A stretch of DNA of 64,000 nucleotides, from NCBI RefSeq assembly GCF_016903815.1, contig NZ_CP069973.1; one strand, 5' to 3'. Both the position numbers and the translations under genes were made by a program. The DNA is from Escherichia coli (GTDB lineage: Bacteria > Pseudomonadota > Gammaproteobacteria > Enterobacterales > Enterobacteriaceae). Every line of letters begins with the position of its first letter. The first letter of the stretch is position 1. This document shows, piece after piece, positions 1 through 27,566 of the stretch. The notes beneath the pieces were generated by a model. It was not told the origin of the DNA. It saw only the letters and a list, made by a program, of their open reading frames with translations, and made no database searches.

Positions 1-40
1 ATTATCAAAGCCACTCTGTAGGGAATGGCTTTTGTAATAA

Positions 41-379
41 CTACTGTTCGCTTAGCTTCTGCTTCAGCAAGTAACCTTCGAGCATCCAGATTTTGTTTAC
101 AGCATTTTGCCGGGCAATCTTCCGACCAATTTCTGCATCAAAGTTTTCCGGGCTTGCACAGGCGCTTTCACCGGTGACGGTGAAGCCATTTTGTAGAGTC
201 AATACACAAAATGTCAGCAGAGCCAAACTGTCGTGATAGTCATCGCCAGTTGCAATAGCTCCATCAGCAGCAGTGAAGTACGTTTCCGCAAGAATAATGC
301 TTTCGATATGGTCTGGCGTAACGCGCTGGGCGGTTTTGCCTTTCTCAACGATTTCTTTTTCGATTTGCTGGTCGTTCAT
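41..379 (-). CDS. Hypothetical prophage protein
   Basis: 112-aa ORF downstream of the lysis cassette; no motif recognised. Confidence 0.35.
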   Translation of the reverse strand: MNDQQIEKEIVEKGKTAQRVTPDHIESIILAETYFTAADGAIATGDDYHDSLALLTFCVLTLQNGFTVTGESACASPENFDAEIGRKIARQNAVNKIWMLEGYLLKQKLSEQ

Positions 380-758
380 AATTATGACCCTGTAGAGTGG
401 TTGCTTGATTAAGATGTCTTTCCATCAGTCCGCCACCACAAAGAATCTTTTTTGCCATAAGGCAGGAGGTTCATCTTTCAGTGGCTGCCAGTGTTATTTC
501 CCCCACTTACTGGCTTGGGTTGCTTCGTGGTACTGCCGTAACTGGTTGCCTAGAACAAATTCCGGTTTCATTATCAAGCCCACCCGTAGATAGGCTTTGT
601 AATGAACTGGCTCTTATCTCAACGCAGCCCCTTACCGCGCGCCAGATGCTCAATATCAAGCATCAGCAATGAGATGTTTAATCTGGATTCACTCCAGAAG
701 TGATCACCACCCTGTCTACAGAGCCAGATGTGAAGGATGATGAGTAAAATTATCGCTA

Positions 759-1226
759 TCATCGAAGGCATTGCGTCCTGATGTATTCCTGAAGCGTTCT
801 CAGTGCTGTTTGGTCGCGGATAATTCCGCCCCGGACACCGAGAACGTTTCGTCCAGCAACTGGAGAGAGTTCGACGGTGGCATCATTGCCCATGCCGGAG
901 GCGCTGGAGGTTTCGGCTGAGGATGGCATATGGCATTTTCCTTTGACGAACACCCGACCACCATTATCAAGCTTGCGCCGAAGAGCATCATTTTCAGCTT
1001 TCGCATCAGCTAACTCCTTCGTGTATTTAGCATCGAGTGCATCAGCAGAACGCTGGCGCTGCTGCATGTGAGTAATGGTGGCGGTCGCCTGCTTCAGCTC
1101 ACTGACTTTTTTATCTCGCTGCTCTTTGTAGGTCATGGCGTTATCACGGTAATGATTAACCGCCCATGACAGGCAGACGATGATGCAGATAACCAGAGCG
1201 GAGATAATCGCGGTGACTCTGCTCAT
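759..1226 (-). CDS. Rz: Rz i-spanin
   Basis: Translation [30 protein letters not shown]... closely matches recalled lambda Rz; stop overlaps the endolysin gene. Confidence 0.85.
800..1006 (-). CDS. Rz1: Rz1 o-spanin lipoprotein, embedded in Rz in another frame
   Basis: ORF nested in Rz with signal/lipobox-like VVGCSS and a proline-rich stretch PPAPPAW, as in lambda Rz1. Confidence 0.65.
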
Positions 1227-1699
1227 ACATCAATCTCTCTGACCGTTCCGCCTGCTTCTTTGAATTTTGCAATTAGGCTGTCAGCCTTATGCTCGAACTG
1301 ACCATAACCAGCGCCCGGCAGTGAAGCCCAGATATTGCTGCAACGGTCAATTGCCTGACGAATATCACCGCGGTCAATCATCGGTAAAGCGCCACGCTCC
1401 TTAATCTGCTGCAGTGCCACAGCGTCCTGGCTTTTCGGAGAGAAGTCTTTCAGGCCAAGCTGCTTGCGGTAGGCATCCCACCAACGGGAAAGAAGCTGGT
1501 AGCGCCCGGCGGCTGTTGATTTGAGTTTGGGGTTTAGCGTGACAAGTTTGCGAGGGTGATCGGAGTAATCAGTAAATAGCTCTCCGCCTACAATGACGTC
1601 ATAACCATGATTTCTGGTTTTCTGCCGTCCGTTATCAGTTCCCTCTGACCACGCCAGCATATCGAGGAACGCCTTACGTTGATTATTGATTTCCACCAT
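1223..1699 (-). CDS. R: Endolysin R (lytic transglycosylase)
   Basis: 158-aa translation [35 protein letters not shown]... matches recalled lambda R nearly throughout. Confidence 0.9.
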
Positions 1700-2006
1700 C
1701 TTCTACTCCGGCTTTTTTAGCAGCGAAGCGTTTGATAAGCGAACCAATCGAGTCAGTACCGATGTAGCCGATGAACACGCTCGTTATATAAGCGAGATTG
1801 CTACTTAGTCCGGCGAAGTCGAGAAGGTCACGAATGAACCAGGCGATAATGGCGCACATCGTTGCGTCGATTACTGTTTTTGTAAACGCACCGCCATTGT
1901 ATCTGCCGCGAAGGTACGCCATTGCAAACGCAAGGATTGCCCCGATGCCTTGTTCCTTTGCCGCGAGAATGGCGGCTAACAGGTCATGTTTTTCTGGCAT
2001 CTTCAT
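1683..2006 (-). CDS. S: Holin S with dual start (MKM)
   Basis: 107-aa translation [25 protein letters not shown]... matches recalled lambda S. Confidence 0.9.
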
Positions 2007-2515
2007 GTCTTACCCCCAATAAGGGGATTTGCTCTATTTAATTAGGAATAAGGTCGGTTACTGATAGAACAAATCCAGGCTACTGTGTTTAGTAATCAGA
2101 TTTGTTCGTGACCGATATGCACGGGCAAAACGGCAGGAGGTTGTTAGCGCGACCTCCTGCCACCCGCTTTCACGAAGGTCATGCGTAGAAGGCCGCAGCA
2201 TAACTATCACTGATGAATTCAGGATAGCCAGTGGCTACGGCTCAGTTTGGGTTGTGGCGGCCGGAATCGAACCGGCTTCCATCGGTGCGCTGCCGATTGC
2301 AGTACGCGCGGCGGTCAGCTACATGACTAGTATTTTCACTGTCGCCTATCTGCTAGCTCGCCATTGAGCTTCACCACAACGATAAGAGCACTGCGCGGCA
2401 CCTTTCACCAATTCCGCGAGGTCTGCGGGTTCAATGCTCTTACCTGTTGTGCAAACAAAAAAAGCCACCATTGCAACTTAAGAGTCACTAACGGCAGCTT
2501 ATCTTCTAATTATGG

Positions 2516-3034
2516 CTAAATGGATAATTGCATGTCAAGGCTTTTAACAGCAACATGCTTAACTTTCTCAACACGTTTACGCATTTTGAAAGCATTTTGC
2601 ATTGGCTGGTACAAAACAAATAACGACGCTTTCAGGATGTCGTCAATTTCGTTTCTACAGGTTGCCAGTGAAGGTTTTCTCCATCCCTCACCACCACGTC
2701 CACACATCTTGCGTGGCTTTGCAGTCGCGTGATAGTAGGATGCAATTGCTCGCTTAGATGAACCATGAGCGTAGTAGCTGAGGAGGATGCCAAATGCTTT
2801 CTTGTCAATGCACATGACGGAATCGACGACCTGAGAAATCAACATTCCATCATCATCATTACACATTGGCCTTGTCATAACTCTTCCCGGCTCTACGCTC
2901 TCCATGAACTTCGCTATTACGCTGCTCATGCGCTTTTCCAGACGACCTGAATAAACCCATGCGCCCCACAGTTCAAGCCAGCCATTCAGCCACTCGTGCT
3001 GCTCTTTGGTGAGGTTTAGTTCTCTTATGCTCAT
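2516..3034 (-). CDS. Late-gene antiterminator Q (QuuD-like family, not lambda Q)
   Basis: Position immediately upstream of the lysis cassette; WGAW and CxDDDG motifs resemble the recalled DLP12 QuuD-type Q. Confidence 0.6.
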   Translation of the reverse strand: MSIRELNLTKEQHEWLNGWLELWGAWVYSGRLEKRMSSVIAKFMESVEPGRVMTRPMCNDDDGMLISQVVDSVMCIDKKAFGILLSYYAHGSSKRAIASYYHATAKPRKMCGRGGEGWRKPSLATCRNEIDDILKASLFVLYQPMQNAFKMRKRVEKVKHVAVKSLDMQLSI

Positions 3035-3219
3035 CGTCTTCCCCTCTTGCCTTGTTTGACCATCAGGACGCCGTTAACTATTACGTGACGCTCGCCTTTG
3101 CTGTCTCGGTTGTACTTGAGCACTGTTCCTCTTGCGCAGGAAAGCATCCTTGCCACTTCGGTCTGATTTCCTCGTGTCTGGATAAGCAGTTCTGGTATCG
3201 TTTGAATTGTGGCGTTCAT
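3031..3219 (-). CDS. ninH: NinH-like small DNA-binding protein
   Basis: Motif GNQTEVARxLxCxRGTVxKY resembles recalled lambda NinH. Confidence 0.55.
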   Translation of the reverse strand: MNATIQTIPELLIQTRGNQTEVARMLSCARGTVLKYNRDSKGERHVIVNGVLMVKQGKRGRR

Positions 3220-3578
3220 GCGTTCTCCAGTTCGGTGATTTTTATTCCAAGCCGTCCGCCTGGTACTTTCACACCACGAATTACGCGAATGTCATCGAAT
3301 TGCTCGTCGTCTTCCGCAAATCCGGCGTGGATAAGGGAGTCGAGTAAACCTTTCAGGATGTTATCGAGGTCGCGGCGGCGGGAGTCTGGAACGTCTGCGA
3401 TGACTTTGATGCGGAGTCGTGATTTGGTGAAAATGTCTAACTTGAGTTGGCGGATGATTTGCTGAACGTCTTTTCGGTATTTCTGGCCTTTATCGCTGAT
3501 GTAGTATTGGCTTCCCCGTCTTCGCCAGTAGGTGTTCAGCGACGGTGGGTATGGAAGCACAAACTGATATTCGTTCAT
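3216..3578 (-). CDS. rusA: Holliday-junction resolvase RusA
   Basis: 120 aa with the RRRDLDN motif and overall resemblance to recalled RusA. Confidence 0.8.
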   Translation of the reverse strand: MNEYQFVLPYPPSLNTYWRRRGSQYYISDKGQKYRKDVQQIIRQLKLDIFTKSRLRIKVIADVPDSRRRDLDNILKGLLDSLIHAGFAEDDEQFDDIRVIRGVKVPGGRLGIKITELENA

Positions 3579-3865
3579 GGCTTAATCTTCCCCTCCTTCA
3601 GCAGTATCGCCTGCGTCCTGATTACGCCTTCGAGGTGGTAAAGTCTGGCGTCTTTGTTGTCGAGGTTATGGGTGCGTCGGTCGATTTCATCGTGACACGC
3701 GCTACAAGCCCATGCGCCGATCAGGTCGTCAGGCTTCATTCCCGTTCCGCAAATTCCAGCCATCCGGTAATGTGCCAGAACTGTAGTTTCAGGATTACCA
3801 TTGCATACGCCGTAAATACGTACCTGGCATTCTCTGCCGCGTGCTTCTTTGCGTAGATTAGCCAT
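3575..3865 (-). CDS. YbcO-like DUF1364 protein (Cys-rich, putative nuclease)
   Basis: 96 aa; GRECQVRIxGVCNGNPET...CSACHDEIDRRTH resembles recalled DLP12 YbcO. Confidence 0.55.
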   Translation of the reverse strand: MANLRKEARGRECQVRIYGVCNGNPETTVLAHYRMAGICGTGMKPDDLIGAWACSACHDEIDRRTHNLDNKDARLYHLEGVIRTQAILLKEGKIKP

Positions 3866-4587
3866 TAAGCAGCCTCCCCTGTTACTTTCAGCATTCCGTT
3901 ATCGAGCAGCTTTCTGGTCAGCCACTGTTGACCACGCCCGGTGATTTTTGTGGTGAACGATATCTGTATTCCGTGATTTGTGTTGACCGCTGTTTCTTTC
4001 ACTGCGAAATAGCCGCGATCCATATATTCCTGCATTGGCACATTGCGCCGGGAACCTGAAGCAATAAGGATTTTGTGATCGCGCATCCACGCAAACAGTT
4101 TGTTTGGACCAATACCAACAACCTTTGCATAGTTTCCAATCAAAATTCCACTGGCCTCGCCAACGCGATCGGCAAACTCAACTTTAGGTGCGGCAATTGC
4201 GAGCTGGTTTTCCAGTTGCATTTTCTGCTCAGCAAGGTCAGCAGCAAGGCGCAACGCTTCTGGTAGCGTTTTTGGGATATTAACCGCAGATTCTTCAAGC
4301 TCTCGCCAACGGTCAACAAGGCGAGCGGTGAATTCCGGCGACAACTGGGCAACAACGACAATACTGTCTCGCTTACCTTGTTCGCCTTCGAAGACGTAAT
4401 GCTCGTACTGAACATTGAACCCTAAGTTATTGATTCTTCCGGAAACCTCAATTTGAGGAAGCCGGATAACACCATTTTTAGCCAGCGTTTCGATGGTACG
4501 TTTCACATTGTCATGACGCTTACCAACCAACTCAGCAATTTCAATGCTTGTCATTTTGATGGCATTGCCATTCATTAACTCATTCAT
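3865..4587 (-). CDS. Phage regulatory protein, Rha/antirepressor-like
   Basis: N-terminal IEIAELVGKRHDNVKR motif typical of Rha-family regulators; C-terminal region resembles antirepressor domains. Confidence 0.55.
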   Translation of the reverse strand: MNELMNGNAIKMTSIEIAELVGKRHDNVKRTIETLAKNGVIRLPQIEVSGRINNLGFNVQYEHYVFEGEQGKRDSIVVVAQLSPEFTARLVDRWRELEESAVNIPKTLPEALRLAADLAEQKMQLENQLAIAAPKVEFADRVGEASGILIGNYAKVVGIGPNKLFAWMRDHKILIASGSRRNVPMQEYMDRGYFAVKETAVNTNHGIQISFTTKITGRGQQWLTRKLLDNGMLKVTGEAA

Positions 4588-4792
4588 CGTCTTCTTCCTC
4601 GTACATTGAGCTATTCGGATCGCTCATCAGTTCTGCGCAGCAGTGCTCACACACGTGAACTTCCAGCACATGCAGCTTCTGACCGCAGTTAGCGCACGTT
4701 AAAGCTCGCTCGACGCTTTCTTGTTCGTAACTTCGATTTGGGTCAATCACCTTGTATTCCTCGCACGATTTCTTAGCCACCGGATATCCCAC
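4580..4792 (-). CDS. ninF: NinF-like protein (start uncertain)
   Basis: [47 protein letters not shown] matches recalled lambda NinF; the true start may be an internal GTG. Confidence 0.6.
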
Positions 4793-4929
4793 AGGTGAGC
4801 AGTGTAATTGAAGGTTTTTACGTCAGATTCTTTTGGGATTGGCTTGCGTTTATTTCTGGAGCGTTTCGTTGGAAGGTATTTGCAGTTTTCGCAGATGATG
4901 TCAGTGAAACTTCGTCGCTGTCGCCTCAT
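4747..4929 (-). CDS. ninE: NinE-like protein
   Basis: Internal Met gives [51 protein letters not shown], matching recalled lambda NinE; 4-bp overlap with the upstream gene. Confidence 0.7.
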
Positions 4930-5453
4930 GCCGCCCTCCTGACGCCCTGCCCGATCGCCATCAATGCCGCTTTGGATACGGTAGTAAACATCCGTCGAGG
5001 ACTGATGAACGGTCGCCAAATCAGCAGCATGGAACCTTTGCTGTTTCCCTTCTTCTCCAGCCCTGTCGATGGTTCGATAAAATTAATCCGTCCATCAGTA
5101 ATGATGCGAACTTCGTCAATACTCTCCAGAGCCTTGCTGAACCATCCGACAGACATATCCTCTGGCACAAGCATAACTACCGTCTGTCGCTGTTGTATGC
5201 ACTGCTCAGCGGCTTTTTCCACCCACGGCCTGATATTGCTGTACGGCGGGTTATTCCAGATTGCACCGTGGCTTACCCACTCAGAATTGAGCGCGTCGTC
5301 GGCCTCAGTCAGCCAGTGAGCGCACAGAGCATTTTTGTCGCTCGCTGCCGAATCCAGCCAGAATCCAAACTCAATATCCAGTGCATCAAAAAGCCAAAGC
5401 GGCGTTTGCCAGCAGTCCTTGTCGTGTGCTGGCGTATTTGATTTGATAGTCAT
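4926..5453 (-). CDS. Phage DNA N6-adenine methyltransferase
   Basis: NPPY catalytic motif (WNNPPYSN); start taken at MTIKS, overlapping the ninB stop as ATGA. Confidence 0.8.
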
Positions 5454-5890
5454 GCAGCCCGATCTCCCCATCTCGCTTTCCACTCCAGAGCCAGTCTCGC
5501 TTCGTCTGACCACTTAACGCCACGCTCTGTACCGAATGCCTGTATAAGCTCTAATAGCTCCGCAAATTCGCCTACACGCATCCTGCTGGTTGACTGGCCT
5601 ATTACCACAAAGCCATTCCCGGCAAGGTTAGGAACAACATCCTGCTGCTTTAATGCTGCGGTAAACACACACTTCCAGCTTTCTGCATCCAGCCAGCGAC
5701 CATGCCATTCAACCTGACGAGAGACGTCACCTAAGCAGGCCCATAGCTTCCTGTTTTGGTCTAAGCTGCGGTTGCGTTCCTGAATGGTTACTACGATTGG
5801 TTTGGTTGGGTCTGGAAGGATTTGCTGTACTGCGTGAATAGCGTTTTGCTGATGTGCTGGAGATCGAATTTCAAAGGTTAGTTTTTTCAT
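5450..5890 (-). CDS. ninB: NinB recombination protein
   Basis: MKKLTFEIRSPAHQQNAIHAVQQILPDPTKPIVVTIQERNRSLDQNRKLWACLGDV... matches recalled lambda NinB; start set at MKK rather than the ORF-track start. Confidence 0.85.
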   Translation of the reverse strand: MKKLTFEIRSPAHQQNAIHAVQQILPDPTKPIVVTIQERNRSLDQNRKLWACLGDVSRQVEWHGRWLDAESWKCVFTAALKQQDVVPNLAGNGFVVIGQSTSRMRVGEFAELLELIQAFGTERGVKWSDEARLALEWKARWGDRAA

Positions 5891-5908
5891 GACTTCCCTC
5901 TCCCCCAA

Positions 5909-5938
5909 ATAAAAAGGCCTGCGATTACCAGCAGGCCT
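5909..5938 (-). terminator. tR2-like intrinsic terminator upstream of ninB
   Basis: Minus-strand transcript forms hairpin GGCCTGC-8nt-GCAGGCC followed by TTTTT; same context as lambda tR2. Confidence 0.6.
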
Positions 5939-5963
5939 GTTATTAGCTCAGTGATGTAGATGA

Positions 5964-6233
5964 TCATTGCTTCATCTCCCTTTCCATTTCATCAATGTCA
6001 ACGTCATCAGGAAGATGGGAGCAATACGCCGCTATACCATGATGATTTATCTCATACCCTTTGAACGTTACCATCTGGTGCGTAATCTCAACTTCGTTCA
6101 GGAATCCGTCATCGCATAACTGCCTGGCTATTTTCGATTTGGTCTGGATTATTGGTAGTGCCTGTTCTTTCAAAGCGCATGATATTTGTGCATCCCATGC
6201 CTTTTCGAGAATGGCTAATTGTTTTTTATTCAT
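5964..6233 (-). CDS. Hypothetical protein (ren position)
   Basis: 89-aa ORF between the helicase gene and tR2. Confidence 0.4.
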   Translation of the reverse strand: MNKKQLAILEKAWDAQISCALKEQALPIIQTKSKIARQLCDDGFLNEVEITHQMVTFKGYEINHHGIAAYCSHLPDDVDIDEMEREMKQ

Positions 6234-7684
6234 CAGAATCCTCCTTTCTTCTTGGACTGCGGTTCCTCGCGTTCACGGCGGCGCATTTCAGCAGACTGTT
6301 GGTCTGTGTCATAAATAGCGCCATTTGCCTGAATGCAATACACCGTGCCGGTATTGCCATGACGATTGAGGCGAAGGATTAGTTCGGTTTCACCAGGAGG
6401 AAAGCTGTCATCAAAAGCACCTTCACGATGGATCCCAACCCAATAATCGCAATCCTGTTCAATCTGCCCTGTATCTCGTGAGTCACTTGGTAATGGGCGT
6501 TTATTGGTTCGGCTTTCCAGTGCGCGGTTAAGCTGTGTCAGAAGCACAACAACGCAATCAAGCTCTTTGGCAAGGTTCTTCAGTCCTTTGGTGATCATGC
6601 CGTAAGCAAGGTCGTTGCGATCGGCCTTTTCAGCGGTCATTAGTGTCAGGTAATCGACCAGAATCATGCCAACACATCCTTTTTCTCGCTTGATTCGACG
6701 GCTTTCGCTGACGATTTGAGCCAGAGATAATCCCGGCGTGTCGTCGATGTAAAGCAGGTCGATTTCACTCAAGCGATTGGCTGTTTCGATCGCCCTGTTG
6801 AAGTCACCATCGTAATCACCCTGATAGCCGTCATCAGCGTCATTTGTCGCCGGAAGGTAAAAAATATTGGGGTTAACACCTGACTTTTGCCCTACCAGTT
6901 TTTCCAGTATCTGGTCACCTGGCATTTCAAGGCTGAACATCAGAGCGGGCTTTTTCTCATGCACTGCGCAGTTGATTGCCATCTGGCTGTATAGCGTCGT
7001 TTTCCCCATCTTAGGGCGAGCGCCAATGACAAACAAAGAGCCTTTCACCAGACCTTTCGGTGACAGCATCCTGTCCAGCGATGGGATCCCTGTGCTCATT
7101 CCTCGTTGTTCGCCTGACGGGTCAAAACGCTTCTCAAGGTCGCTAACCCAGTCTTCCATGACCTCACCAAATGAGCGAAGTCCGCGACGCGATCCGGTTT
7201 TTGCATGGTCTGTCAGTTGCGTGAAAATCGCCTGAATAGCTTCGTACTTCTGCGTTGCAGTCATTCCGTTGCGGGAATAGAGCAATTCCGTCGCTTCAGT
7301 CATGCGGTTGATGGCGTAGCGTTCCATTGCGGTTTCGCGAACCTGCATTGCATAGGCAACGATGTTTGCTGCGCTTGGCGTGTTCTTTGCGATCTCAGCG
7401 ATATAAGCAAAACCGCCAACAGACGCCGTTAACGATTTACGCTCCAGTTCATCGAAAAGCGTCAGGCCATCTACTGGCTTTTGCTCCCGGTGCATTCTGG
7501 TTATCTCTTCGAAAAGGATTTTGTGTGGTCGGCTGTAAAATGAATCAGGCTTCAGCATCGCCAGAACTTTCTGGACGCGCTCACTGCTGTCATCATCCAG
7601 AAGCAATCCACCAATCACCGCCTGCTCTGCCTCGATGCTATGGGGCGGCGCATAAAAATTATCGGTCATCGTGTTCACCCTCAC
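6233..7684 (-). CDS. Replicative DNA helicase, DnaB family (phage-encoded)
   Basis: 483 aa; DnaB-like N-terminus (HSIEAEQAVIGGLLLD) and Walker A GARPKMGKTTL. Confidence 0.85.
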   Translation of the reverse strand: MRVNTMTDNFYAPPHSIEAEQAVIGGLLLDDDSSERVQKVLAMLKPDSFYSRPHKILFEEITRMHREQKPVDGLTLFDELERKSLTASVGGFAYIAEIAKNTPSAANIVAYAMQVRETAMERYAINRMTEATELLYSRNGMTATQKYEAIQAIFTQLTDHAKTGSRRGLRSFGEVMEDWVSDLEKRFDPSGEQRGMSTGIPSLDRMLSPKGLVKGSLFVIGARPKMGKTTLYSQMAINCAVHEKKPALMFSLEMPGDQILEKLVGQKSGVNPNIFYLPATNDADDGYQGDYDGDFNRAIETANRLSEIDLLYIDDTPGLSLAQIVSESRRIKREKGCVGMILVDYLTLMTAEKADRNDLAYGMITKGLKNLAKELDCVVVLLTQLNRALESRTNKRPLPSDSRDTGQIEQDCDYWVGIHREGAFDDSFPPGETELILRLNRHGNTGTVYCIQANGAIYDTDQQSAEMRRREREEPQSKKKGGF

Positions 7685-8558
7685 GAACTTTCAGGTAGGT
7701 ATTGTCGTTAAGCAGGAAATCAAATCCCTTTTTGTGCCAGACGGTTCCGCGTTGATGGTTTGGGCGTTCTTCGAACATCCATCGGCAATTTTCGCCTACG
7801 TAGCTCAAATAATTTCTCCAGTCCTGCATCGTGAACCCATGTCCGTCAAGCTGGCGGGTTATCACTCCGGCTTTGCGCCAGAACGTTCGGATCTGGTTTT
7901 TACGCTTGTCATTCAGTGCGCGGATTCTTGGCGCTTCAGGAAGGATTTCGTGGTAAGCATCGACAACATCCTGACAGCTGACGGAAGGTTTTTTCTTGTC
8001 AGACTTTTTGTCTGCTGTGGCACTCTCTAATACGTCAGTATTAGAGATAATATTATTATATTCTTTATCTGTGGTAATTTGCTGGTAATCTGCTGGTACA
8101 GTATTGCTTGCAGGCATTGGTATTGCTGGCTTTGAGGTGGTAATTTGCTGGTAATCTGCTGGTACAAAACTTGACTGATAATCGTCATATTTCTCTACCG
8201 AGAAAACTGAGAATTTACCGTGTGAAACCCAGTCAATCATGCCGAGTTTTTTGAACTTTCTAAGCAGGTACTGAACGCGATCTGGTTTGAGTCCTGTTTC
8301 AAACGCCAGAGAGTTTCTACCGCCAAGTAGCTTCCCTCTGCCTACCAGAATTTCTCCTGCGTCAGTCATTACATACTCAGGCGTATGCTTTGCTTTGAGG
8401 ATTAAGTGAACCCACAGATGCGCTGCTTCTGCGTCCTTGTAAAACGGCACATCCATAATTTTACGGTGCAGCAAGGCATACCCCTTACCGCTGCTTTGAT
8501 GCGGTTGTTGTAGCCTTCTGGCCTCTCTGGCTTCGGCTAGATTAGATATGTTACTCAT
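7659..8558 (-). CDS. Replication initiator, lambda O-like, with internal origin repeats
   Basis: Position between cII and the helicase; contains direct DNA repeats encoding a duplicated [10 protein letters not shown] peptide. Confidence 0.65.
8071..8166. repeat. Origin-like iterons inside the O-like gene: two identical 30-bp direct repeats (8071-8100, 8137-8166) beside an AT-rich stretch (8041-8070)
   Basis: GTGGTAATTTGCTGGTAATCTGCTGGTACA appears twice; the lambda origin likewise lies inside O. Confidence 0.5.
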
Positions 8559-8697
8559 GACCTTTCTCCTTCTGCATCAGCTTCACTTTTTCCAACTCAG
8601 CCCGAAATCGACCAGGCTGCTTGAAGCTGGACAGGAAGCGATCACGTAGTATGTGTTTGTGAATTTTGTCCTGGTAAGGACTGAGTTGTTTTGTCAT
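8551..8697 (-). CDS. Small basic ORF (48 aa) between cII and the O-like gene, not on the ORF track
   Basis: My own translation [21 protein letters not shown]...; its stop overlaps the O-like start codon. Confidence 0.25.
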
Positions 8698-8729
8698 AAT
8701 TACTCCTGTGGATTGATCCAGTAATGACC

Positions 8730-9023
8730 TCAGAACTCCATCTGGATTTGTTCAGAACGCTCGGTTGCCGCCGGGCGTTTTTTATTGGTGAGAATCGAAG
8801 CAACTTGTCGTGCCAATCGAGCCATATCGTCGTCAACGACGCCCCATTCAAGAACAGCAAGCAGCATTGAGAACTTTGGAATCCAGTCCCTCTTCCACCT
8901 GCTGATCTGCGACTTATCAACTCCTACAGCTTCCGCTGTCTTCTCAGTTCCAAGCATTGCGATTTTGTTAAGCAACGCACTCTCGATTCGTAGAGCCTCG
9001 TTGCGTTTGTTTGCACGAACCAT
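8730..9023 (-). CDS. cII: Transcriptional activator CII
   Basis: From the internal Met, [51 protein letters not shown]... matches recalled lambda CII. Confidence 0.85.
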
Positions 9024-9102
9024 ATGTAAGTATTTCCTTAGATAACAATTGATTGAATGTATGCAAATAAATGCATACACCATAGGTGTGGTTTAATTTG
9101 AT

Positions 9103-9135
9103 GCCCTTTTTCAGGGCTGGGATGTGTAAGAGCGG
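9103..9135 (-). promoter_or_regulatory. nutR (boxA CGCTCTTACAC and boxB GCCCTGAAAAAGGGC on the minus strand)
   Basis: Minus-strand sequence matches lambda nutR boxA/boxB between cro and cII. Confidence 0.7.
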
Positions 9136-9142
9136 AAATGTC

Positions 9143-10495
<1,353 letters not shown>

Positions 10496-10543
10496 TCCCC
10501 ACCTCAATCTCGATAACCAAAAACAAACTATTTTTCATTTAAA

Positions 10544-10612
10544 AACAATGGAGTTTGTTTTTCACGCCCCTTTTTACAATATTTCTTGTTTACAACATAC
10601 AATCTTTCTTGT
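10544..10612. promoter_or_regulatory. Left operator OL (three ACAA-N6-TTGT sites) with the pL region
   Basis: Sites at 10544-10557, 10576-10589 and 10599-10612 upstream of nutL and N. Confidence 0.6.
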
Positions 10613-10656
10613 AATTTTAAGCCATCAGCAGGACGCACTAACCACCATGAAGGTGA

Positions 10657-10687
10657 TGCTCTTAAAAATTAAGCCCTGAAGAAGGGC
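10657..10687 (+). promoter_or_regulatory. nutL (boxA GCTCTTAAAAA, boxB GCCCTGAAGAAGGGC)
   Basis: Sequence GATGCTCTTAAAAATTAAGCCCTGAAGAAGGGCAGC matches recalled lambda nutL. Confidence 0.8.
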
Positions 10688-10885
10688 AGCTTTCAAAGCA
10701 GAAGGCTTTGGGATTGGATGAATGAGCAGGCTGATGCTCGACCAATGTATAAACAGCGCTCATGGCAAGCAGTAACCAATCTGCGCCTCAAGACAGCGTC
10801 ACTGGTAGTGCGGGCGCTCTAACCAGTAAGCCGGGGTTCAGCGCCGGCCATCCAATCACCAAAGCTAACTGACAGGAGAATCCAG

Positions 10886-11218
10886 ATGGATGCACAAACA
10901 CGCCGCCGCGAACGTCGCGCAGAGAAACAGGCTCAATGGAAAGCAGCGAATCCCCTGTTGGTTGGGGTAAGCGCAAAACCAGTTAACCGCCCTATTCTCT
11001 CGCTGAATCGCAAACCGAAATCACGAGTAGAAAGCGCACTGAATCCGATAGACCTTACGGTGCTGGCTGAATACCACGAACAGATTGAAAGCAACCTGCA
11101 GCGTATTGAGCGCAAGAATCAGCGCACATGGTACAGCAAGCCACGCAGTGAAATGGGTGTGACTTGCTCAGGCCGCCAGAAGCAACGCGGAAAATCAATT
11201 CCAGCTTATTACGATTGA
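10886..11218 (+). CDS. N: Antitermination protein N
   Basis: MDAQTRRRERRAEKQAQWKAANPLLVGVSAKPVNRPILSLNRKPKSRVESALNPIDLTVLAEYH... matches recalled lambda N. Confidence 0.9.
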   Translation: MDAQTRRRERRAEKQAQWKAANPLLVGVSAKPVNRPILSLNRKPKSRVESALNPIDLTVLAEYHEQIESNLQRIERKNQRTWYSKPRSEMGVTCSGRQKQRGKSIPAYYD

Positions 11219-11226
11219 GGTGATAT

Positions 11227-11478
11227 ATGGAATTTCATGAAAGTGCGATTTGTGATTTTCGCGCTAACGCAAATTCAGTAAAACCACAGCCAATTGCAGT
11301 TCTTTTTAAAACAATGGGAGCGTGGGCTGTTTTATGCTTCGCCGCTGATGACACTGACGCAAGAATGGCAATAGGCCAAGAGATGGAGATGGATCCGACA
11401 AACGATGAATTCATAATTTATGGCGCTCCATCTAATTACTTACTTGATACCTGCAACATTTACAACAAGGCTGCCTGA
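11227..11478 (+). CDS. Hypothetical early-left protein
   Basis: 83-aa ORF directly after N with an SD-ATG context. Confidence 0.4.
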   Translation: MEFHESAICDFRANANSVKPQPIAVLFKTMGAWAVLCFAADDTDARMAIGQEMEMDPTNDEFIIYGAPSNYLLDTCNIYNKAA

Positions 11479-11537
11479 TGGTGGTCTTTATTTTTTAGCC
11501 GTAAATAATTTCATGCTTATTACAATCAAGGTGATAT

Positions 11538-11903
11538 ATGGAAGAACAAGCAAACAAGATTCTCGTAGAACTACTGCAAAAAGCCAGCAATGGAATAGAC
11601 GCGGCTGTTTCATTTAGCCAGGCACAGATTCCTGATGTCATCCATCAGCTTTTGATGTGGCACGCCGTATCATCAGCTGGAATTCAGGCTATCTGTGTAT
11701 TGGTGATTATAGCGTGTGTTTATCTGATGATTTTTGCATGGAATAAAGGAGATGATGCAGATATTGTTCTTTCATCACTACTTGTCACATCAGGAATAGC
11801 GATTATTTCTATTGTTGTTTTCTTCAATTATTTCGACTGGCTGAAAATTTGGCTTGCTCCAAAACTTTACCTTATCGAATATGCAGCATCATTGGTTAAG
11901 TAA
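11538..11903 (+). CDS. Small membrane protein (two predicted TM segments) in the sieB/ral slot
   Basis: 121 aa with two hydrophobic stretches (AICVLVIIACVYLMIFAW and VTSGIAIISIVVFFNYF). Confidence 0.5.
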   Translation: MEEQANKILVELLQKASNGIDAAVSFSQAQIPDVIHQLLMWHAVSSAGIQAICVLVIIACVYLMIFAWNKGDDADIVLSSLLVTSGIAIISIVVFFNYFDWLKIWLAPKLYLIEYAASLVK

Positions 11904-12092
11904 TTTCAGGACGCATAGCCGGCCTTTATTTTTGGCACAAACAACAGAATAAACACTGCACTGTGTATTCATTCCAACGAGTGGATACACGGAGCAATGT
12001 CGCTCGTAACTAAACAGGAGCCGACTTGTTCTGATTATTGGAAATCTTCTTTGCCCTCCAATGTGAGGGCAGTTTTTTTGACGGAGTAAACG

Positions 12093-12341
12093 ATGATAAA
12101 AACTGATTACCCTGCAGAGCTTAAACAAAAAGTAATAACAGCAATTAAATGCTCTTTTATCTCATGTCGTACAGATGAAGAACGATATGTCGTTGAGTGT
12201 GCAATTGTCGAGTTTCTCACAGCGATGGAATTTACCGCTGCAGAATCAATAGATGTATTAAAGCAATCAGACGGAAATGATATTGAAACGGATGATGTTA
12301 TTGACCGACTAATAAAATCATTCGAAGAAGAAATAGAGTAG
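12093..12341 (+). CDS. Hypothetical acidic protein
   Basis: 82-aa ORF; no motif recognised. Confidence 0.4.
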   Translation: MIKTDYPAELKQKVITAIKCSFISCRTDEERYVVECAIVEFLTAMEFTAAESIDVLKQSDGNDIETDDVIDRLIKSFEEEIE

Positions 12342-12424
12342 CCGCCTGAGCGCGGCTTTACCGCATACCAATAATGCTTCACGAGAGGCATTTTAGTTAT
12401 GCAATCAAATATAAGGAGTTACCC

Positions 12425-12559
12425 ATGATGCACTTTCAGCTCGCGGGTAGCGGCGTCATGTCCGCTTTCTACCCGCACGAATCTGAATTATCACGCCGAG
12501 TTAAACAATTAATCAGAGCAGCAAAGAAACAAATGGAGGCGTTATGCGCAATGAAATAG
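12425..12559 (+). CDS. CIII-like protein (putative FtsH inhibitor)
   Basis: From the internal Met, MMHFQLAGSGVMSAFYPHESELSRRVKQLIRAAKK follows the pattern of recalled lambda CIII (AGWPVAGCPSESLLERITRKLR). Confidence 0.5.
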   Translation: MMHFQLAGSGVMSAFYPHESELSRRVKQLIRAAKKQMEALCAMK

Positions 12560-12777
12560 CCATCAATCACCAGATGCTTCGTGCTGCACAGAACAAAGCA
12601 GTAATAGCCAGATTTATTGGTGATTCCAAAATGTGGCTTGAAGCAAATAAAGCGATGAAATCAGCTATCAACCTTCCGTGGTATCGCAGGAAATGAGTTT
12701 TACAGATAACTGGTCAGACGAAGAATTCATTCGTCAGATGAACAAAATGCTCAATCAGCACAAAGAACAGGAGAAAG

Positions 12778-13089
12778 ATGATGATTCTGACTCTGAATGA
12801 TAAGCGTGAAATATCGCAAATAATCGCAAGTTTTACTGATGAAGATTACGAACGAATCAACAGTGAAGTTGATCGCCTCTGCAAACGTTGCGACCCAATA
12901 AGCGAAATGCTTCGCTCATATAAACCAGATGAACACACTAAGGACGCTATCGACTGGCTGGAAGATGATGACTGTAACTATCAGGAAAAAGCCGCTGAAT
13001 GGTTCTGGGATGCAATAACCGAAAGAGTTAAGGCTGAATATGCCTTCGCAATATTCAAACGCAGACATATTTATGGAGAAGCTGCATGA
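12778..13089 (+). CDS. Hypothetical protein
   Basis: 103-aa ORF; stop overlaps the recT-like start. Confidence 0.4.
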   Translation: MMILTLNDKREISQIIASFTDEDYERINSEVDRLCKRCDPISEMLRSYKPDEHTKDAIDWLEDDDCNYQEKAAEWFWDAITERVKAEYAFAIFKRRHIYGEAA

Positions 13090-13997
13090 GCAATATCGTT
13101 GAATTCGTTAAACAGCAAGAGCAGTTATTCTGCGGAGCATTGACTGAACAGACGGTGACATGGGCTAAGGAAAGCCAGTTTGCAATTCAGTATTTCCAGA
13201 AAAATGATTACCTGGCTAAAACGGCACTGGCAAATCCAACCAGCGCACAGAACGCCATCATCAATGTTGCGGCGATCGGCATCACCTTAAACCCGGCCAG
13301 CAAACTGGCTTATCTGGTTCCTCGCGACGGCATGGTGTGCCTTGATATCAGTTATATGGGATTGCTCCATATTGCAATGGAGTCTGGTGTTATCTCATGG
13401 GGTCAGGCAAAACTTGTTCATGCTAACGATACCTATGAGTCAAACGGGCTTGATAAAGCACCAACCCATAAATACAACGCCTTCGGTGATCGTGGTGATA
13501 TCGTTGGCGTTTACTGCACAGTTAAGACGCCAGCAGGTGATTATCTAACGGAAGAGATGAGTCTGGCTGAAATTGAGGCTGTAAGGAAAACAAGCAAGGC
13601 GGCATTCAGCGATAAAGGACCATGGGTAAATCACTGGAATGAGATGGCGCGAAAGACGGTCGTAAAGCGTGCAAGCAAGTTTTGGCCTAAGGCATCACGT
13701 CTTGATAGTGCTATTCACGTACTAAACGAAGAAGAAGGTGTGTGGACTGAACCAGTTATGCCGCACAAATCAGAGGAAGATATCCGCGAAGATGAACGGA
13801 AACGCCAGCAGGAAATAACGGATAAAGCACAACTTCTTTGTGATGAAATGGCTCAGGCTGAAAACATGGATGATTTGAAGCGATATTTTGCAGAAGCATA
13901 TCGCCTGACATCTGGAATGAAATTGCAGCAGAACGTACAAGCCATTTACGCAGAATGCAAAGCGAAACTGGAGGTTGCCAGTGAGCAAACTATATGA
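13086..13997 (+). CDS. RecT-family single-strand annealing recombinase
   Basis: GPWVNHWNEMARKTVVKRASKFWP resembles the recalled RecT motif GPWVTHWEEMAKKTAIRR. Confidence 0.7.
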   Translation: MSNIVEFVKQQEQLFCGALTEQTVTWAKESQFAIQYFQKNDYLAKTALANPTSAQNAIINVAAIGITLNPASKLAYLVPRDGMVCLDISYMGLLHIAMESGVISWGQAKLVHANDTYESNGLDKAPTHKYNAFGDRGDIVGVYCTVKTPAGDYLTEEMSLAEIEAVRKTSKAAFSDKGPWVNHWNEMARKTVVKRASKFWPKASRLDSAIHVLNEEEGVWTEPVMPHKSEEDIREDERKRQQEITDKAQLLCDEMAQAENMDDLKRYFAEAYRLTSGMKLQQNVQAIYAECKAKLEVASEQTI

Positions 13998-14463
13998 AAT
14001 TGCCAATGAATACGCAAAATTGATGGATTCAGATTTAGAACCAGAGATGATTGCTGACACAATAGAAGGCATGGAAGGAGAATTTACCGATAAAATAGAG
14101 CAACTTCTTGCCATTATTAAAAATGAATCTGGTTATGCTGAACGCCTCAAGGAAGAGGCAAAGTCACTGAATGAGCGAGCCGCAGTAATTCAAAATAAGA
14201 TTGAGAGCATCAAATCATATATAGCGTCATCGCTTGAAATGGTTGGCAAGAAAAAGATTCGAGCAGGTATTCACCAGGTAACAATCCGCAAACCGTCAGA
14301 AACTGTAGAAATCATCGACTCAAGCGCCCTTCCTCCTGAATACGTTGAGTTTGAAACGACAATTAAAGCCGACAAACTGGCAATCAAACACCAACTAAAA
14401 GCAGGAATAAATATCCCCGGCGCTCAACTCAAAGTTGGGAAACCTTCACTTCTTATCAAATAA
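13975..14463 (+). CDS. Hypothetical protein coupled to the recombinase
   Basis: 162-aa helical ORF overlapping the recT-like stop. Confidence 0.4.
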   Translation: MPVSKLYEIANEYAKLMDSDLEPEMIADTIEGMEGEFTDKIEQLLAIIKNESGYAERLKEEAKSLNERAAVIQNKIESIKSYIASSLEMVGKKKIRAGIHQVTIRKPSETVEIIDSSALPPEYVEFETTIKADKLAIKHQLKAGINIPGAQLKVGKPSLLIK

Positions 14464-14474
14464 CGGTATCGACT

Positions 14475-14789
14475 ATGAAAAAGACTCCATGGGAGAAATG
14501 GGAAGTCGATTTCTTGCGCGAGGTAGCGGCGACAATGCCAGTTGAAGTTATCGCTGAAAAACTGGAAAGGACTGAAAAAGCAGTAATGGCGAAAGCAACA
14601 AGGATTGGCGCTGACATTGTTAGCCGACTTCGTGGAAGACGATGGACAAGAGCCGAAGTATCACTTTTCGGTAAGTTCTCCGCAGAAGAAATAGCAATTG
14701 CAACCTGCCGCTCAATTTATTCAGTAAGAGCTATGCGATACAAGCTAAAAAAACTCGATGAAGAAAGAGCAGGCATACGAATAAATTAA
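14475..14789 (+). CDS. Hypothetical protein
   Basis: 104-aa ORF. Confidence 0.4.
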   Translation: MKKTPWEKWEVDFLREVAATMPVEVIAEKLERTEKAVMAKATRIGADIVSRLRGRRWTRAEVSLFGKFSAEEIAIATCRSIYSVRAMRYKLKKLDEERAGIRIN

Positions 14790-14805
14790 CATGGAGTAAT
14801 TAACA

Positions 14806-15087
14806 ATGAAGCTAAACATCGACCTTGGAAAATACGTTATTACCGGAACCAAACACGACCTGATTCTTAGTGAAAGAGGAATTATCAAAGAAGGCGAGAA
14901 TGCAGGGAAAGAAACACTAAGTCGTATCGGTTATTACAGCAAGTTTGAGCATCTGGTTAAAGAGTTATGCAACCGTGAAATCCTGTTATCTCAGGCGCAG
15001 ACACTACAGGATATTCAGCAGCATATCGAGACTTTAGGTGTATCACTTAGCACGGCTGTTGACCAGTTCGCGGAGAGTAAATCATGA
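14806..15087 (+). CDS. Hypothetical protein
   Basis: 93-aa ORF. Confidence 0.4.
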
Positions 15088-15488
15088 GAGGACTTGCATA
15101 CAATCCCGGCATTCTTCCGGCAGAAATGATTATTCGCCAACGCGTAAAGCCAATGCCATCGAGAGAGGAATTGCTTAAGAGAAATTCTTTTCCATCAGTG
15201 AATCAAAACAAATATCTGAATTCGATGTGGCGCAAAGGAGGCAAGCAGTGAGTAATTCCGCACGACTACAGCTTGGTTTTTCACCGCTATCAAAAACTAT
15301 CATGCTGGCAAAAATGCGCGATGTTGAAGGTGGACGTATGCGCGTTGGCAATGATCCAGGTCGTGATGTTACCAATGAGGCTGCTCAATTGGTGTGGCGA
15401 CTGGTCATGGCTGAAGGTGGTGAGATCGCGTGGGAACTTGATGATGGTTCTCGCATGGTGTTGAAGGCAGAGAAGCAGGAGACAACCA

Positions 15489-16181
15489 GTGAGCAAGATT
15501 GACTATCAGGCACTGCGTGATGTGGCAGTGAAAGCCGGTAAAGATAAGTGGCAAGCTAAAAAAATAAACGGTGATTTTTTCGTTATTCGTCACGGTAGTT
15601 ATACAAGACAGCATGGCTACACATTGTATCAACCCATTGCGGAGATTGATTGTAAGTCAGTCCGGGATTTTGTTGCCAAGGCTAATCCGGCTACCGTGCT
15701 TGCGCTTCTTGATGAACTGGAAGCTCAAAGCAAACGCATTGCAGAGCTGGAGAAAAAAGCTGCACCAGATTCGTTTGGCATCATCGGTGAAAATATTCGA
15801 ACACAGGATAATCGAATAACGTCAGACCCTATGTTTTGTGTGTATCAAAAGCGCGAAATCGTTGTTGATGCTGATTATGACTATGACCGGATTGTCTGGG
15901 TTGATGAAGATGGTAATGAAGCCAATAAACGCCAAAGTCGTCGTCTCGAACTACTTCACGAAAACTTTCGAGAGCCACAAGAAAAATGGCGGCGCGTTGC
16001 TGTGAAAGATATTGATGAATTCGTTACCTGCTGTTTCACCGAACAGGGTTGTAAAGACTACCTGGCAGCCAATGGTCACAATCTTCGCTTGCCATTTATA
16101 TATGTAAAAAGCGGTTTCAGGAACGCTGAATATATCGGCATAAGAAACTGGCTTGCTGGCATTCGCATCAAAGGAGAGTGA
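15489..16181 (+). CDS. Ead/Ea22-like protein
   Basis: 230 aa; composition and position resemble the lambdoid ea22 family; assigned from memory. Confidence 0.45.
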   Translation: MSKIDYQALRDVAVKAGKDKWQAKKINGDFFVIRHGSYTRQHGYTLYQPIAEIDCKSVRDFVAKANPATVLALLDELEAQSKRIAELEKKAAPDSFGIIGENIRTQDNRITSDPMFCVYQKREIVVDADYDYDRIVWVDEDGNEANKRQSRRLELLHENFREPQEKWRRVAVKDIDEFVTCCFTEQGCKDYLAANGHNLRLPFIYVKSGFRNAEYIGIRNWLAGIRIKGE

Positions 16182-16392
16182 TATGGCTATCGCTGCAAGT
16201 TACACCATGCATCTCTATTGTGATTGCCTCCAGTGTACAGATGGCAAATATAAGTCGCCAGACTTCGGTGAGTATATAGGTACGTCATGGGCTGGCTGTG
16301 CAAAAGAGGCGCGCAAGGATGGCTGGCGAATAAGCAAAGACAAAACGCGTGCTTTTGCGCCCGGGCATAAAGTTTTGAGGATTAACAAATGA
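16153..16392 (+). CDS. Hypothetical Cys-rich protein
   Basis: 79-aa ORF overlapping both neighbours. Confidence 0.35.
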   Translation: MLAFASKESDMAIAASYTMHLYCDCLQCTDGKYKSPDFGEYIGTSWAGCAKEARKDGWRISKDKTRAFAPGHKVLRINK

Positions 16393-17180
16393 CCACTTTA
16401 ACCGACAAAGAACTGATTAAAGAAATCAAAGAGCGCATAGGCAGCTTGGACGTTCGAGACAATATTGAGCGCCGTGCTTATGAAATTGCACTGGCATCGC
16501 TGGAAGCAGAGCCGATAGGTTTCCGTTGCAGGCGCAATGATAACCTTGGTGACTGGAGTTACGTATATCATCGAGAGCCAGATGATTTTGAGCGCAAACA
16601 TTTAGTGATAGAGGGCATTTACGCCTCCCCTCCAGCGCCAGTAGTACCGGAAGAAAAACCAATGCCTAATCCTCTTAGCATGTACGCGGTTGATGCTGTT
16701 GCCGCTATTGCAGAGGTGAGAGGCTGGAACGCCTGCCGCGCTGCCATGCTTCATAGTGCCGAACCTGCAAGTAATCATGAAGAGTTGCCGCTTGATTATC
16801 TCCAAGGTCAAAAAGATGGTCTTGAATGGGCTGCGCAGCTTGCAGAAGCAAATCACCCACAAACTGGCGACTGGCTTTACGATGACCCGCTGGAGCTGGC
16901 TAAAGCTATCAGAAAAGGTCCTGACATGCCCGAATTCGATGGACCAACTCCGGTGACTCCGGATAGTTGGATAAGCTGTAGTGATCGAATGCCGGAAGAC
17001 ACCAAAATGTTACTGGCATTTAGTCAAGGTCAAATAGTGGCAGCATATTGGAACTGGGTAGTGAGTCCAATTGATTACAAAAAATACAGAGCTTTCACAT
17101 ATTTATCAGGCAATATCTTGGATGACGTAACCCACTGGATGCCACTACCGGAACCGCCGCAGGAGGCTGACAATGGCTAA
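16389..17180 (+). CDS. DUF551-like phage protein
   Basis: C-terminal ...THWMPLPEPP is characteristic of DUF551 proteins. Confidence 0.5.
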   Translation: MTTLTDKELIKEIKERIGSLDVRDNIERRAYEIALASLEAEPIGFRCRRNDNLGDWSYVYHREPDDFERKHLVIEGIYASPPAPVVPEEKPMPNPLSMYAVDAVAAIAEVRGWNACRAAMLHSAEPASNHEELPLDYLQGQKDGLEWAAQLAEANHPQTGDWLYDDPLELAKAIRKGPDMPEFDGPTPVTPDSWISCSDRMPEDTKMLLAFSQGQIVAAYWNWVVSPIDYKKYRAFTYLSGNILDDVTHWMPLPEPPQEADNG

Positions 17181-17457
17181 TCTGCAACTGGCAGTGAACG
17201 GCGAATACTTCGACCAGATGAAGCGGGGCGAGAAAACGGAAGAGTATCGCCTGTGTAATGACTACTGGAATAAGCGAATTATGTTCCGGGAGTATGACCG
17301 CCTGATTATCACAAAGGGATATCCGAAGCGCGACGATTCCAGTCGCAGAATTGATGTTCCGTATGGTGGATATGAAATCAAGACAATCATACATCCACAC
17401 TTCGGTGATAAACCGGTAAAGGTGTTCGCGATAAAGGTGAATATCGGCAATGAATAA
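17173..17457 (+). CDS. Hypothetical protein
   Basis: 94-aa ORF, translationally coupled. Confidence 0.4.
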   Translation: MANLQLAVNGEYFDQMKRGEKTEEYRLCNDYWNKRIMFREYDRLIITKGYPKRDDSSRRIDVPYGGYEIKTIIHPHFGDKPVKVFAIKVNIGNE

Positions 17458-17529
17458 CATCCTCGCACTCGCGGGGATTTCTTTTATCTGAACTCGCTAC
17501 GGCGGGTTTTGTTTTATGGAGATGATAAA

Positions 17530-17697
17530 TGCACTTCCGAGTCACTGGTGAATGGAATGGAGAGCCATTCGACAGGGTTATAGAAGCAGAGGACATCAAC
17601 GACTGCTATAACCACTGGATGATATGGGCGCAGATAGCGCATGCAGACGTAACCAATATTCGAATTGAAGAACTGAAAGAACACCAAGACGCCTGAT
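17530..17697 (+). CDS. Small prophage ORF (55 aa), not on the ORF track
   Basis: My own translation MHFRVTGEWNGEPFDRVIEAEDINDCYNHWMIWAQIAHADVTNIRIEELKEHQDA. Confidence 0.35.
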
Positions 17698-17753
17698 GGC
17701 GGTTTTTTATTGCCTGATTTGCAGGTTCGATTCCCTATTCGGAGATAGCACTC

Positions 17754-17954
17754 ATGCAACACGAACTACAGCCTGATTCACTGGTTGATTTGAAATTCAT
17801 CATGGCCGATACTGGCTTTGGTAAAACCTTCATCTATGACCGGATTAAGTCCGGCGACCTTCCTAAAGCCAAAGTTATCCACGGACGAGCAAGATGGTTA
17901 TATCGTGACCATTGTGAATTTAAAAATAAGCTCTTAAGCCGCGCCAATGGGTAA
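17754..17954 (+). CDS. torI: Excisionase / recombination directionality factor, TorI type
   Basis: 66-aa excisionase-family HTH protein immediately inside attR; I recall it as matching K-12 TorI. Confidence 0.7.
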   Translation: MQHELQPDSLVDLKFIMADTGFGKTFIYDRIKSGDLPKAKVIHGRARWLYRDHCEFKNKLLSRANG

Positions 17955-18027
17955 AATAGCGGGTAAAATATTTCTCACATCTAAAAAACACCATTCCAAT
18001 CAATCCCCTGCCGCTTCAAGTAGATGT

Positions 18028-20241: not shown

Positions 20242-20397
20242 AGGAAGGATGTTCCCAAATTGTGCGTTAGAACTAAAAAATAACGCCCAATTTGGGGTAA
20301 TTCTATTCCCAAAAATTTTTTCTCCAAATTCACAGAAAACTTAAAAAAACAATGATTTACTATCTCACATAGTCAAGCAACGTATTACGAGGTAGAT

Positions 20398-20589: not shown

Positions 20590-20637
20590 AGAACAGAAAC
20601 AAACAGGATACAAACAATACGTTATTAGGTATTAAGA

Positions 20638-20829: not shown

Positions 20830-20910
20830 TCGCACAAAAATTGTAGAGTAATTTGGGGAGACAGGAAGTCTCCTCCATATTACATTTTGGTACAACAGTA
20901 AGGGAATAAA

Positions 20911-21488: not shown

Positions 21489-21556
21489 TTGACAAAGCAG
21501 AAAGCCGACTTTGCGAGAGTCGGCTTTGAAGCAATTGAAATATATGAACTTTACAC

Positions 21557-27564: not shown

Positions 27565-27566
27565 CA

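Follow-up and report, generated by a model that had tools for sequence, protein, structure and literature searches.

The closest known relatives of the gene examined in this work come from prophage VT2-Sakai (VT2-Sa) and from phages 933W and Phi24B. The product of VT2-Sakai orf32 (M.EcoVT2Dam, NP_050531) appears as a GATC-specific orphan methyltransferase in papers that cite Radlinska and Bujnicki 2001 (PMC6602927; PMC7556043), an assignment that is taken here from these secondary citations, and the Phi24B dam gene, reported as 100% identical to NP_050531, was shown to have a transcript pattern tied to the lytic cycle (PMC3342100). The subject of this work is a dam-type gene located on the minus strand, at positions 4926-5453, of a 64,000-nucleotide stretch of an Escherichia coli genome (assembly GCF_016903815.1, contig NZ_CP069973.1), denoted here as the window. 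Its product is identical to the VT2-Sakai protein in 174 of 175 residues, the sole difference being the conservative replacement I112V, and to the 933W methyltransferase (NP_049494) in 173 of 175. Both phage genes are as long as that of the window and lie, like it, in a ninB-dam(-ninE) arrangement in which stop and start codons overlap, and M.EcoVT2Dam and the 933W and Phi24B dam genes are effectively the same gene as that of the window. Apart from these one or two replacements, all of them conservative, what differs is the carrier, which here is a P22-like, non-Stx prophage. We consider it highly probable that the gene encodes an orphan phage Dam, reduced to a minimal catalytic core, which methylates GATC, is expressed as a delayed-early function of this lambdoid prophage and supplements the host Dam on replicating phage DNA.

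An orphan methyltransferase gene in the nin region

The gene is an intact open reading frame running from the ATG at 5453 to the TGA at 4928-4926, and it coincides with the RefSeq coding sequence WP_023146905.1 ('phage N-6-adenine-methyltransferase') of E. coli strain 2779, whose chromosome (NZ_CP103521.1) contains a part 100% identical to the window, in reverse orientation. The gene, its diagnostic codons and its immediate neighbours are as follows.

4926..5453, minus strand: dam-type gene, a 175-residue orphan N6-adenine DNA methyltransferase of the T1/HP1/VT2 'phage Dam' family (open reading frame, PF05869, TIGR01712, RefSeq coding sequence, identity to VT2-Sakai orf32)
5241..5252, minus strand: codons of the catalytic motif IV, N68-P69-P70-Y71 (sequence reading and 60-sequence family alignment)
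5340..5357, minus strand: codons of L33-D34-S35-A36-A37-S38, at the end of the first beta strand (alignment, and strand 31-34 of the structural model)
5450..5453, minus strand: ATGA, ninB stop overlapping the dam start (sequence reading)
4926..4929, minus strand: ATGA, dam stop overlapping the ninE start (sequence reading)
5450..5890, minus strand: ninB, the upstream gene, an Orf-family recombination mediator (PF05772, 2.3e-54, and RefSeq annotation)
4747..4929, minus strand: ninE, the downstream gene (PF05322, 7.3e-42, and RefSeq annotation)

A GTG located upstream, at 5513, was ruled out as the start codon, since alignment to the family profiles starts at residues 2-4 of the product initiated at ATG-5453, which is also the RefSeq start. 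A 174-residue open reading frame antisense to the gene (4795-5319, plus strand), without any Pfam match, was treated as spurious, probably a by-product of the composition of the coding strand.

The protein matches PF05869, 'DNA N-6-adenine-methyltransferase (Dam)', with E=1.4e-64 and 217.3 bits (cut-off 28.1), its residues 4-169 covering positions 1-167 of the 169 in the profile, and the NCBIfam equivalog TIGR01712, 'phage N-6-adenine-methyltransferase', with E=9.6e-80 and 265.9 bits (cut-off 97.05). Both matches are far beyond chance. It also matches phrog_111, and its best PADLOC matches are 'orphan methyltransferase' models. In a 60-sequence family alignment T17, D34, N68, P70, R122 and F125 are invariant, and all of them are kept in the window protein, as are the near-invariant positions (including W15, P18, A37, P69, Y71, W104 and N137), P69 and Y71 being conserved in at least 90% of the sequences. 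Bases 5252-5241 read AAC CCG CCG TAC, that is, N68-P69-P70-Y71, and D34 is presumably the acidic residue that binds S-adenosylmethionine (SAM). The overlap between the stop codon of ninB and the start codon of dam constitutes translational coupling, and the Shine-Dalgarno sequence of ninE (AGGAGG) is located within the 3' end of dam.

An earlier note on this DNA, made from the letters alone, had placed a methyltransferase gene at 4926-5453, and the open reading frame and the RefSeq coding sequence fall exactly there. It had also described the product as an N6-adenine methyltransferase with an NPPY motif, in agreement with the PF05869 and TIGR01712 matches and the codons at 5252-5241, and had put the gene in the nin region, coupled to ninB, as confirmed by the neighbouring NinB (PF05772) and NinE (PF05322) and by the ATGA at 5453-5450. 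Its description of the gene as an orphan was equally sound: searches of Pfam, the RefSeq annotation and PADLOC revealed no restriction endonuclease in the nin and early region, and no such neighbour was found either in the four relatives checked (from Yersinia, Klebsiella, Pectobacterium and Edwardsiella).

The family to which this protein belongs is widespread, since PF05869 was found in 8719 representative clusters (E<=1e-3, in a library clustered at 50% identity). DNA at least 95% identical to the dam gene is present in 1565 of 5426 complete E. coli genomes (~29%), with up to five copies per genome, and a protein at least 95% identical is encoded in 244 phage records, the carriers including phages 434, mEp043, HK140, SfI, BP-4795 and 933W and many Stx phages. 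The gene is, therefore, an already known, annotated and ordinary component of lambda-like prophages; being widespread and one residue away from an enzyme listed for GATC, it carries little weight as a discovery.

The organization of the enzyme was predicted by an AlphaFold2 model of its 175 residues, built on the family alignment (predicted local distance difference test, 95.1; predicted template modelling score, 0.91). In this model the protein is a single SAM-methyltransferase core that lacks a separate domain for DNA or target recognition, and its best structural matches are methyltransferase cores belonging to much larger proteins. A sequence search of the Protein Data Bank gave no homologue, the best E-value (0.32) corresponding to the unrelated SdiA. 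In four representatives of the family (P0139, P0141, P0147 and P0242) the PF05869 domain is fused to C5-cytosine DNA methyltransferases, which supports DNA as the substrate of the family.

Target, timing and proposed role

The adenine of GATC is most likely the target of the window enzyme, as would be expected from the single conservative difference (I112V) that separates it from the VT2 enzyme. Five members of the family have a reported specificity, namely those of VT2, T1, HP1, Phi93DAM and Btr190III, and in all of them it is GATC. In the case of the lactococcal M.Phi93DAM, this was demonstrated by single-molecule real-time sequencing and by DpnI and DpnII digestion of phage and plasmid DNA (PMC4190342); an exact primer match on MV10L gp03, a close homologue with 33% identity to the window protein, tied this enzyme to PF05869. 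M.Btr190III methylates GATC as well, with notable off-target activity on over-expression (PMC4996451).

This latter behavior is pertinent to a different explanation, in which the enzyme would methylate adenine in DNA at a target that is relaxed, or other than GATC alone, giving broad anti-restriction cover. The predicted lack of a target-recognition domain in a 175-residue core would fit such a scheme, as does the fact that cloned M.Btr190III modifies, besides GATC, many related sequences (PMC4996451), and prophage methyltransferases are often promiscuous (PMC4659465). However, every one of the five specificities mentioned above is GATC, and one of them belongs to the enzyme that differs from that of the window only at residue 112. 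Kinship with the known non-specific prophage methyltransferases Hia5 and Hin1523 was ruled out, since these contain DPPY and FxGxG motifs and constitute another family (PMC3299994). A relaxed target is thus considered unlikely.

The expected GATC target has a consequence for the host. The earlier note had anticipated that the enzyme, if expressed from the prophage, would also methylate the host chromosome. This needs to be qualified, because host Dam already methylates ~99.9% of the GATC sites in E. coli methylomes (PMC6602927), so that no new chromosomal mark is expected, and because the prophage, while repressed, most likely does not express the gene. For these same two reasons, the sequencing of methylation in the lysogen would be uninformative in a dam+ host, and phage-encoded GATC methylation would be invisible in the methylomes of such hosts.

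The expected timing of expression is derived from the position of the gene. Positions 1 to ~18,000 of the window correspond to the P22-like lambdoid prophage; its late genes are found immediately outside the window, before position 1. Its rightward early operon comprises, in this order, a pR-like promoter, a cro-like gene, cII, replication genes, ninB, dam, ninE, ninF, an antirepressor gene, ybcO, rusA, ninH and Q. The elements that are likely to control the entry of transcription into dam are the following.

5915..5938, minus strand: intrinsic terminator, a hairpin with a T-run just upstream of ninB (terminator scan, lambda alignment, fold of -16.3 kcal/mol, z = -2.5)
9386..9414, minus strand: pR-like promoter, TTGACA-17-GAAAAT, between the cI-like and cro-like genes (consensus scan only; gene order from RefSeq)
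10886..11218, plus strand: N antiterminator gene (RefSeq annotation)

The terminator, at 5938-5915, is nearly identical to the ren-ninB intergenic sequence of lambda, and by its position we take it to be lambda tR2; the sequences upstream of ninB in 933W and VT2-Sakai are unrelated to this region of the window. The pR-like promoter (9414-9386) is presumably the source of the transcript that reaches dam and, by analogy with lambda, N would presumably be needed for the read-through of the terminator located upstream of ninB and dam. The combination of a lambda-type terminator upstream and a prophage-encoded N suggests a delayed-early, induction-dependent expression. Thus, dam probably belongs to the delayed-early genes of the lytic cycle and would therefore act mainly on phage DNA after induction. 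Two further observations concern the same prophage: a gene for a Rha-N/KilAC antirepressor is inserted in the nin region (3865-4587, minus strand), between ninF and ybcO-rusA, overlapping ninF by 8 bases, and an ead/Ea22-like pseudogene is also present.

All these elements could be integrated in a model in which the pR transcript would pass the replication genes and then, with N antitermination, continue through the lambda-type terminator into ninB-dam-ninE, where the translation of dam would be coupled to that of both its neighbours. After induction or infection, phage DNA would replicate faster than the scarce host Dam can follow, and the phage enzyme would add GATC-methylating capacity, so that the progeny DNA could be packaged fully methylated. 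In this regard, lambda, which does not carry the gene, packages DNA with only about half of its Dam sites methylated (PMC3299994), and carrying dam could be the way in which lambdoid phages keep half-methylated DNA out of their particles. The candidate benefits would be protection from DpnII- or MboI-type enzymes in later hosts or, according to an older hypothesis, the avoidance of MutH cuts at unmethylated GATC. Protection from restriction has been shown for a distant member of the family, as M.Phi93DAM protects against DpnII (PMC4190342). The gene with its motifs, its family, its near-identity to the enzyme reported for GATC, its predicted fold, its orphan status, its place in the operon and the terminator are shown by the present analysis; the GATC specificity of the window allele, its lytic timing in this prophage and its selective benefit are inferred.

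Several points weigh against this proposal. The function of phage Dam enzymes has been described as 'still not well understood' (PMC7556043), and the benefit that the lambdoid enzyme brings to the phage, be it anti-restriction or MutH avoidance, is unproven. The promoter and antitermination steps are drawn from consensus matches and from analogy with lambda. Similarly, the GATC assignments of the cloned family members come from over-expression, which can give off-target methylation, a caution that was also raised in PMC10810198. Finally, the prophage itself is strongly depleted in GATC: positions 1-17960 contain 32 sites, versus an expectation of 87 by trinucleotides or 69 by base composition, whereas the flanking chromosome (28300-64000) shows no depletion (observed/expected, 0.89 and 1.11), and no other palindromic tetramer has so large a prophage-specific deficit as GATC. 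This is unlike what would be predicted for an enzyme that fully solved the problem of under-methylated GATC. Since lambdoid genomes are mosaics, the depletion does not refute the mechanism, but it shows that selection against the site is not relaxed by the enzyme, and the phage both avoids GATC and carries the enzyme presumed to act on it. It is worth mentioning that GATC methylation by over-expressed Dam enzymes, including that of phage P1, triggers at least one retron defence system (bioRxiv 10.1101/2020.06.22.160242), so that dam genes can be liabilities as well as assets for a phage.

Neighbours in relatives and other explanations

In lambda, ninC and ninD take the place of dam between ninB and ninE, which identifies dam as an interchangeable module of the nin region. 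The relatives from Pectobacterium (79% identical) and Edwardsiella (72%) are found in the nin region, next to NinF/NinG or RusA, while those from Yersinia (68%) and Klebsiella (61%) (loci L010-L014) lie outside it, in a leftward early operon near the integrase, the Klebsiella gene directly after YqaJ-RecT and the Yersinia gene a few genes downstream of YqaJ. The gene moves, therefore, between early operons, staying solitary among early replication and recombination genes. The notion that the adjacency to ninB represents a conserved functional pairing was ruled out, because it holds in E. coli lambdoid phages but not in the Pectobacterium, Edwardsiella, Yersinia and Klebsiella relatives.

These neighbours are the basis for an explanation in which dam would be a member of the recombination and replication toolkit rather than an anti-restriction gene, guarding unmethylated, mismatch-containing recombination intermediates from cutting by MutHLS. 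Indeed, the early genes that accompany it act in recombination or junction processing: NinB/Orf in the window, RusA or NinG in Edwardsiella and Pectobacterium, and YqaJ-RecT in Klebsiella and Yersinia. If this were true, the space between ninB and ninE would be a DNA-modification slot, although we judge the explanation improbable. As regards the occupant of that slot in lambda, NinC (positions 3082-3954 of locus L009) is a protein with a PAPS-reductase domain. Besides, in one representative of the family (P0195) the PF05869 domain is fused to a PAPS-reductase domain, a hint that NinC-like proteins may be functionally linked to DNA modification.

Another possibility would be lysogenic conversion, that is, that expression from the repressed prophage changes the GATC methylation of the host, for instance by raising Dam activity, shortening the hemimethylated period and altering mismatch repair, gene regulation or the stability of the prophage. 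The authors of the Phi24B work suggested that the phage Dam supplements the host enzyme in lysogens; the Dam protein was detected in lysogen cultures in an antibody screen, and stable 933W lysogeny requires host Dam (PMC3342100). However, the same study ascribes the signal to a sub-population that is spontaneously induced, with expression tracking the lytic cycle (PMC3342100). In the window, dam belongs to the pR operon and lies behind a terminator, and the consensus scan gave no promoter-like site of its own; in addition, the methylomes of strains carrying such genes display no extra motif (PMC6602927). We consequently find a role in the lysogen very unlikely, compared with the lytic supplementation of host Dam proposed above.

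A prophage 'DNA adenine methyltransferase' of Stx phages turned out to be a 16S rRNA methyltransferase requiring a partner, PNB-2 (PMC10810198, 2023). By analogy, the window gene might encode an RNA adenine methyltransferase or an enzyme dependent on a partner. Nevertheless, the rRNA enzyme is an MT-A70 protein with a DPPW motif, from a different family and with no detectable sequence similarity to that of the window, whereas members of the window protein's own family, cloned alone, methylate GATC in DNA, and fusions to DNA C5-cytosine methyltransferases occur in the family. The fold does not favor RNA either, because in the structure comparison the DNA methyltransferases M.TaqI, M.BseCI, MmeI, Dam and CamA score nearly as high as PCIF1, an RNA cap enzyme. 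An RNA or partner-dependent activity is, in our opinion, exceedingly unlikely. Least credible of all is an inactive remnant, for although prophage genes often decay and the ead/Ea22-like pseudogene in this prophage is an instance (not direct evidence regarding dam), the reading frame is intact, all the family-invariant residues are kept, and the gene recurs, at the identities given above, in 1565 of 5426 genomes and in 244 phage records, including the viable phages 434, HK140, mEp043, SfI and 933W.

The rest of the window and comparison with known systems

Beyond the xis-like gene (torI) of the prophage lies a low-GC (41%) stretch, at 18207-28193, which contains small HTH/MerR genes together with the following ones.

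18207-19493, plus strand: tyrosine integrase
19486-20241, plus strand: open reading frame of 251 residues
21557-22609, plus strand: rolling-circle Rep-like gene (PF23343)
24397-26862 and 23408-24400, both minus strand: two overlapping large genes, of 821 and 330 residues, with no Pfam or PADLOC match
27567-28193, plus strand: serine recombinase

The overlapping pair may represent the cargo of an integrative element, perhaps two defence genes that are still uncharacterised. Past this element, at roughly 28,800-34,100, there are a truncated dsdX-like permease pseudogene and the csc sucrose gene cluster. Within the prophage, neither Pfam nor PADLOC gave a match for a 134-residue open reading frame (10091-10495, plus strand). 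This frame overlaps the cI-like repressor gene (9462-10094) at its end, and genes for exclusion or defence are often found at this position in lambdoid prophages. A search with Rfam at gathering thresholds found no RNA family, and hence no tRNA gene, in the whole 64 kb.

Among the known systems, the methyltransferase domain of PCIF1/CAPAM, a eukaryotic, multi-domain RNA cap enzyme, has 16% identity to the window enzyme, the likeness being in fold only. The 16S rRNA methyltransferase mentioned above (M.EcoPA8orf6770P / M.EcoGV, phage PA8 gp5) was considered as a candidate for the same gene and ruled out (BLASTP E=2.0). M.EcoPA8orf6770P matches PF05063 (MT-A70), is located near int, needs its partner and prefers rRNA, and the Pfam search gave no PF05063 match for the window protein; M.EcoGV, for its part, was reported to methylate GATC when over-expressed (PMC10810198).

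Much closer are the Dam proteins of phage T1 (M.EcoT1Dam, 32% identical) and of the Haemophilus phage HP1 (35% identical), both of them members of PF05869, which share with the window protein the motifs DxWxTP, LDxAA, NPPYS and GRxxFI. Both are orphan early genes and both are reported to be GATC-specific. T1 Dam presents a 35-residue N-terminal extension and an internal insertion, and the genomic contexts are unlike that of the window, since T1 is a virulent siphovirus and HP1 a P2-like phage.

The classical Dam enzymes (E. coli Dam, T4 Dam and DpnM; PF02086, alpha class) are a different case. The window protein gives no PF02086 match at E<=0.01, only ~107 of its core residues superpose with those of E. 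coli Dam, T4 Dam and DpnM, and it lacks their separate DNA-recognition domain. The window enzyme, although it would work in the manner of Dam, therefore lies outside the classical Dam family, and the specificity that they share looks convergent.
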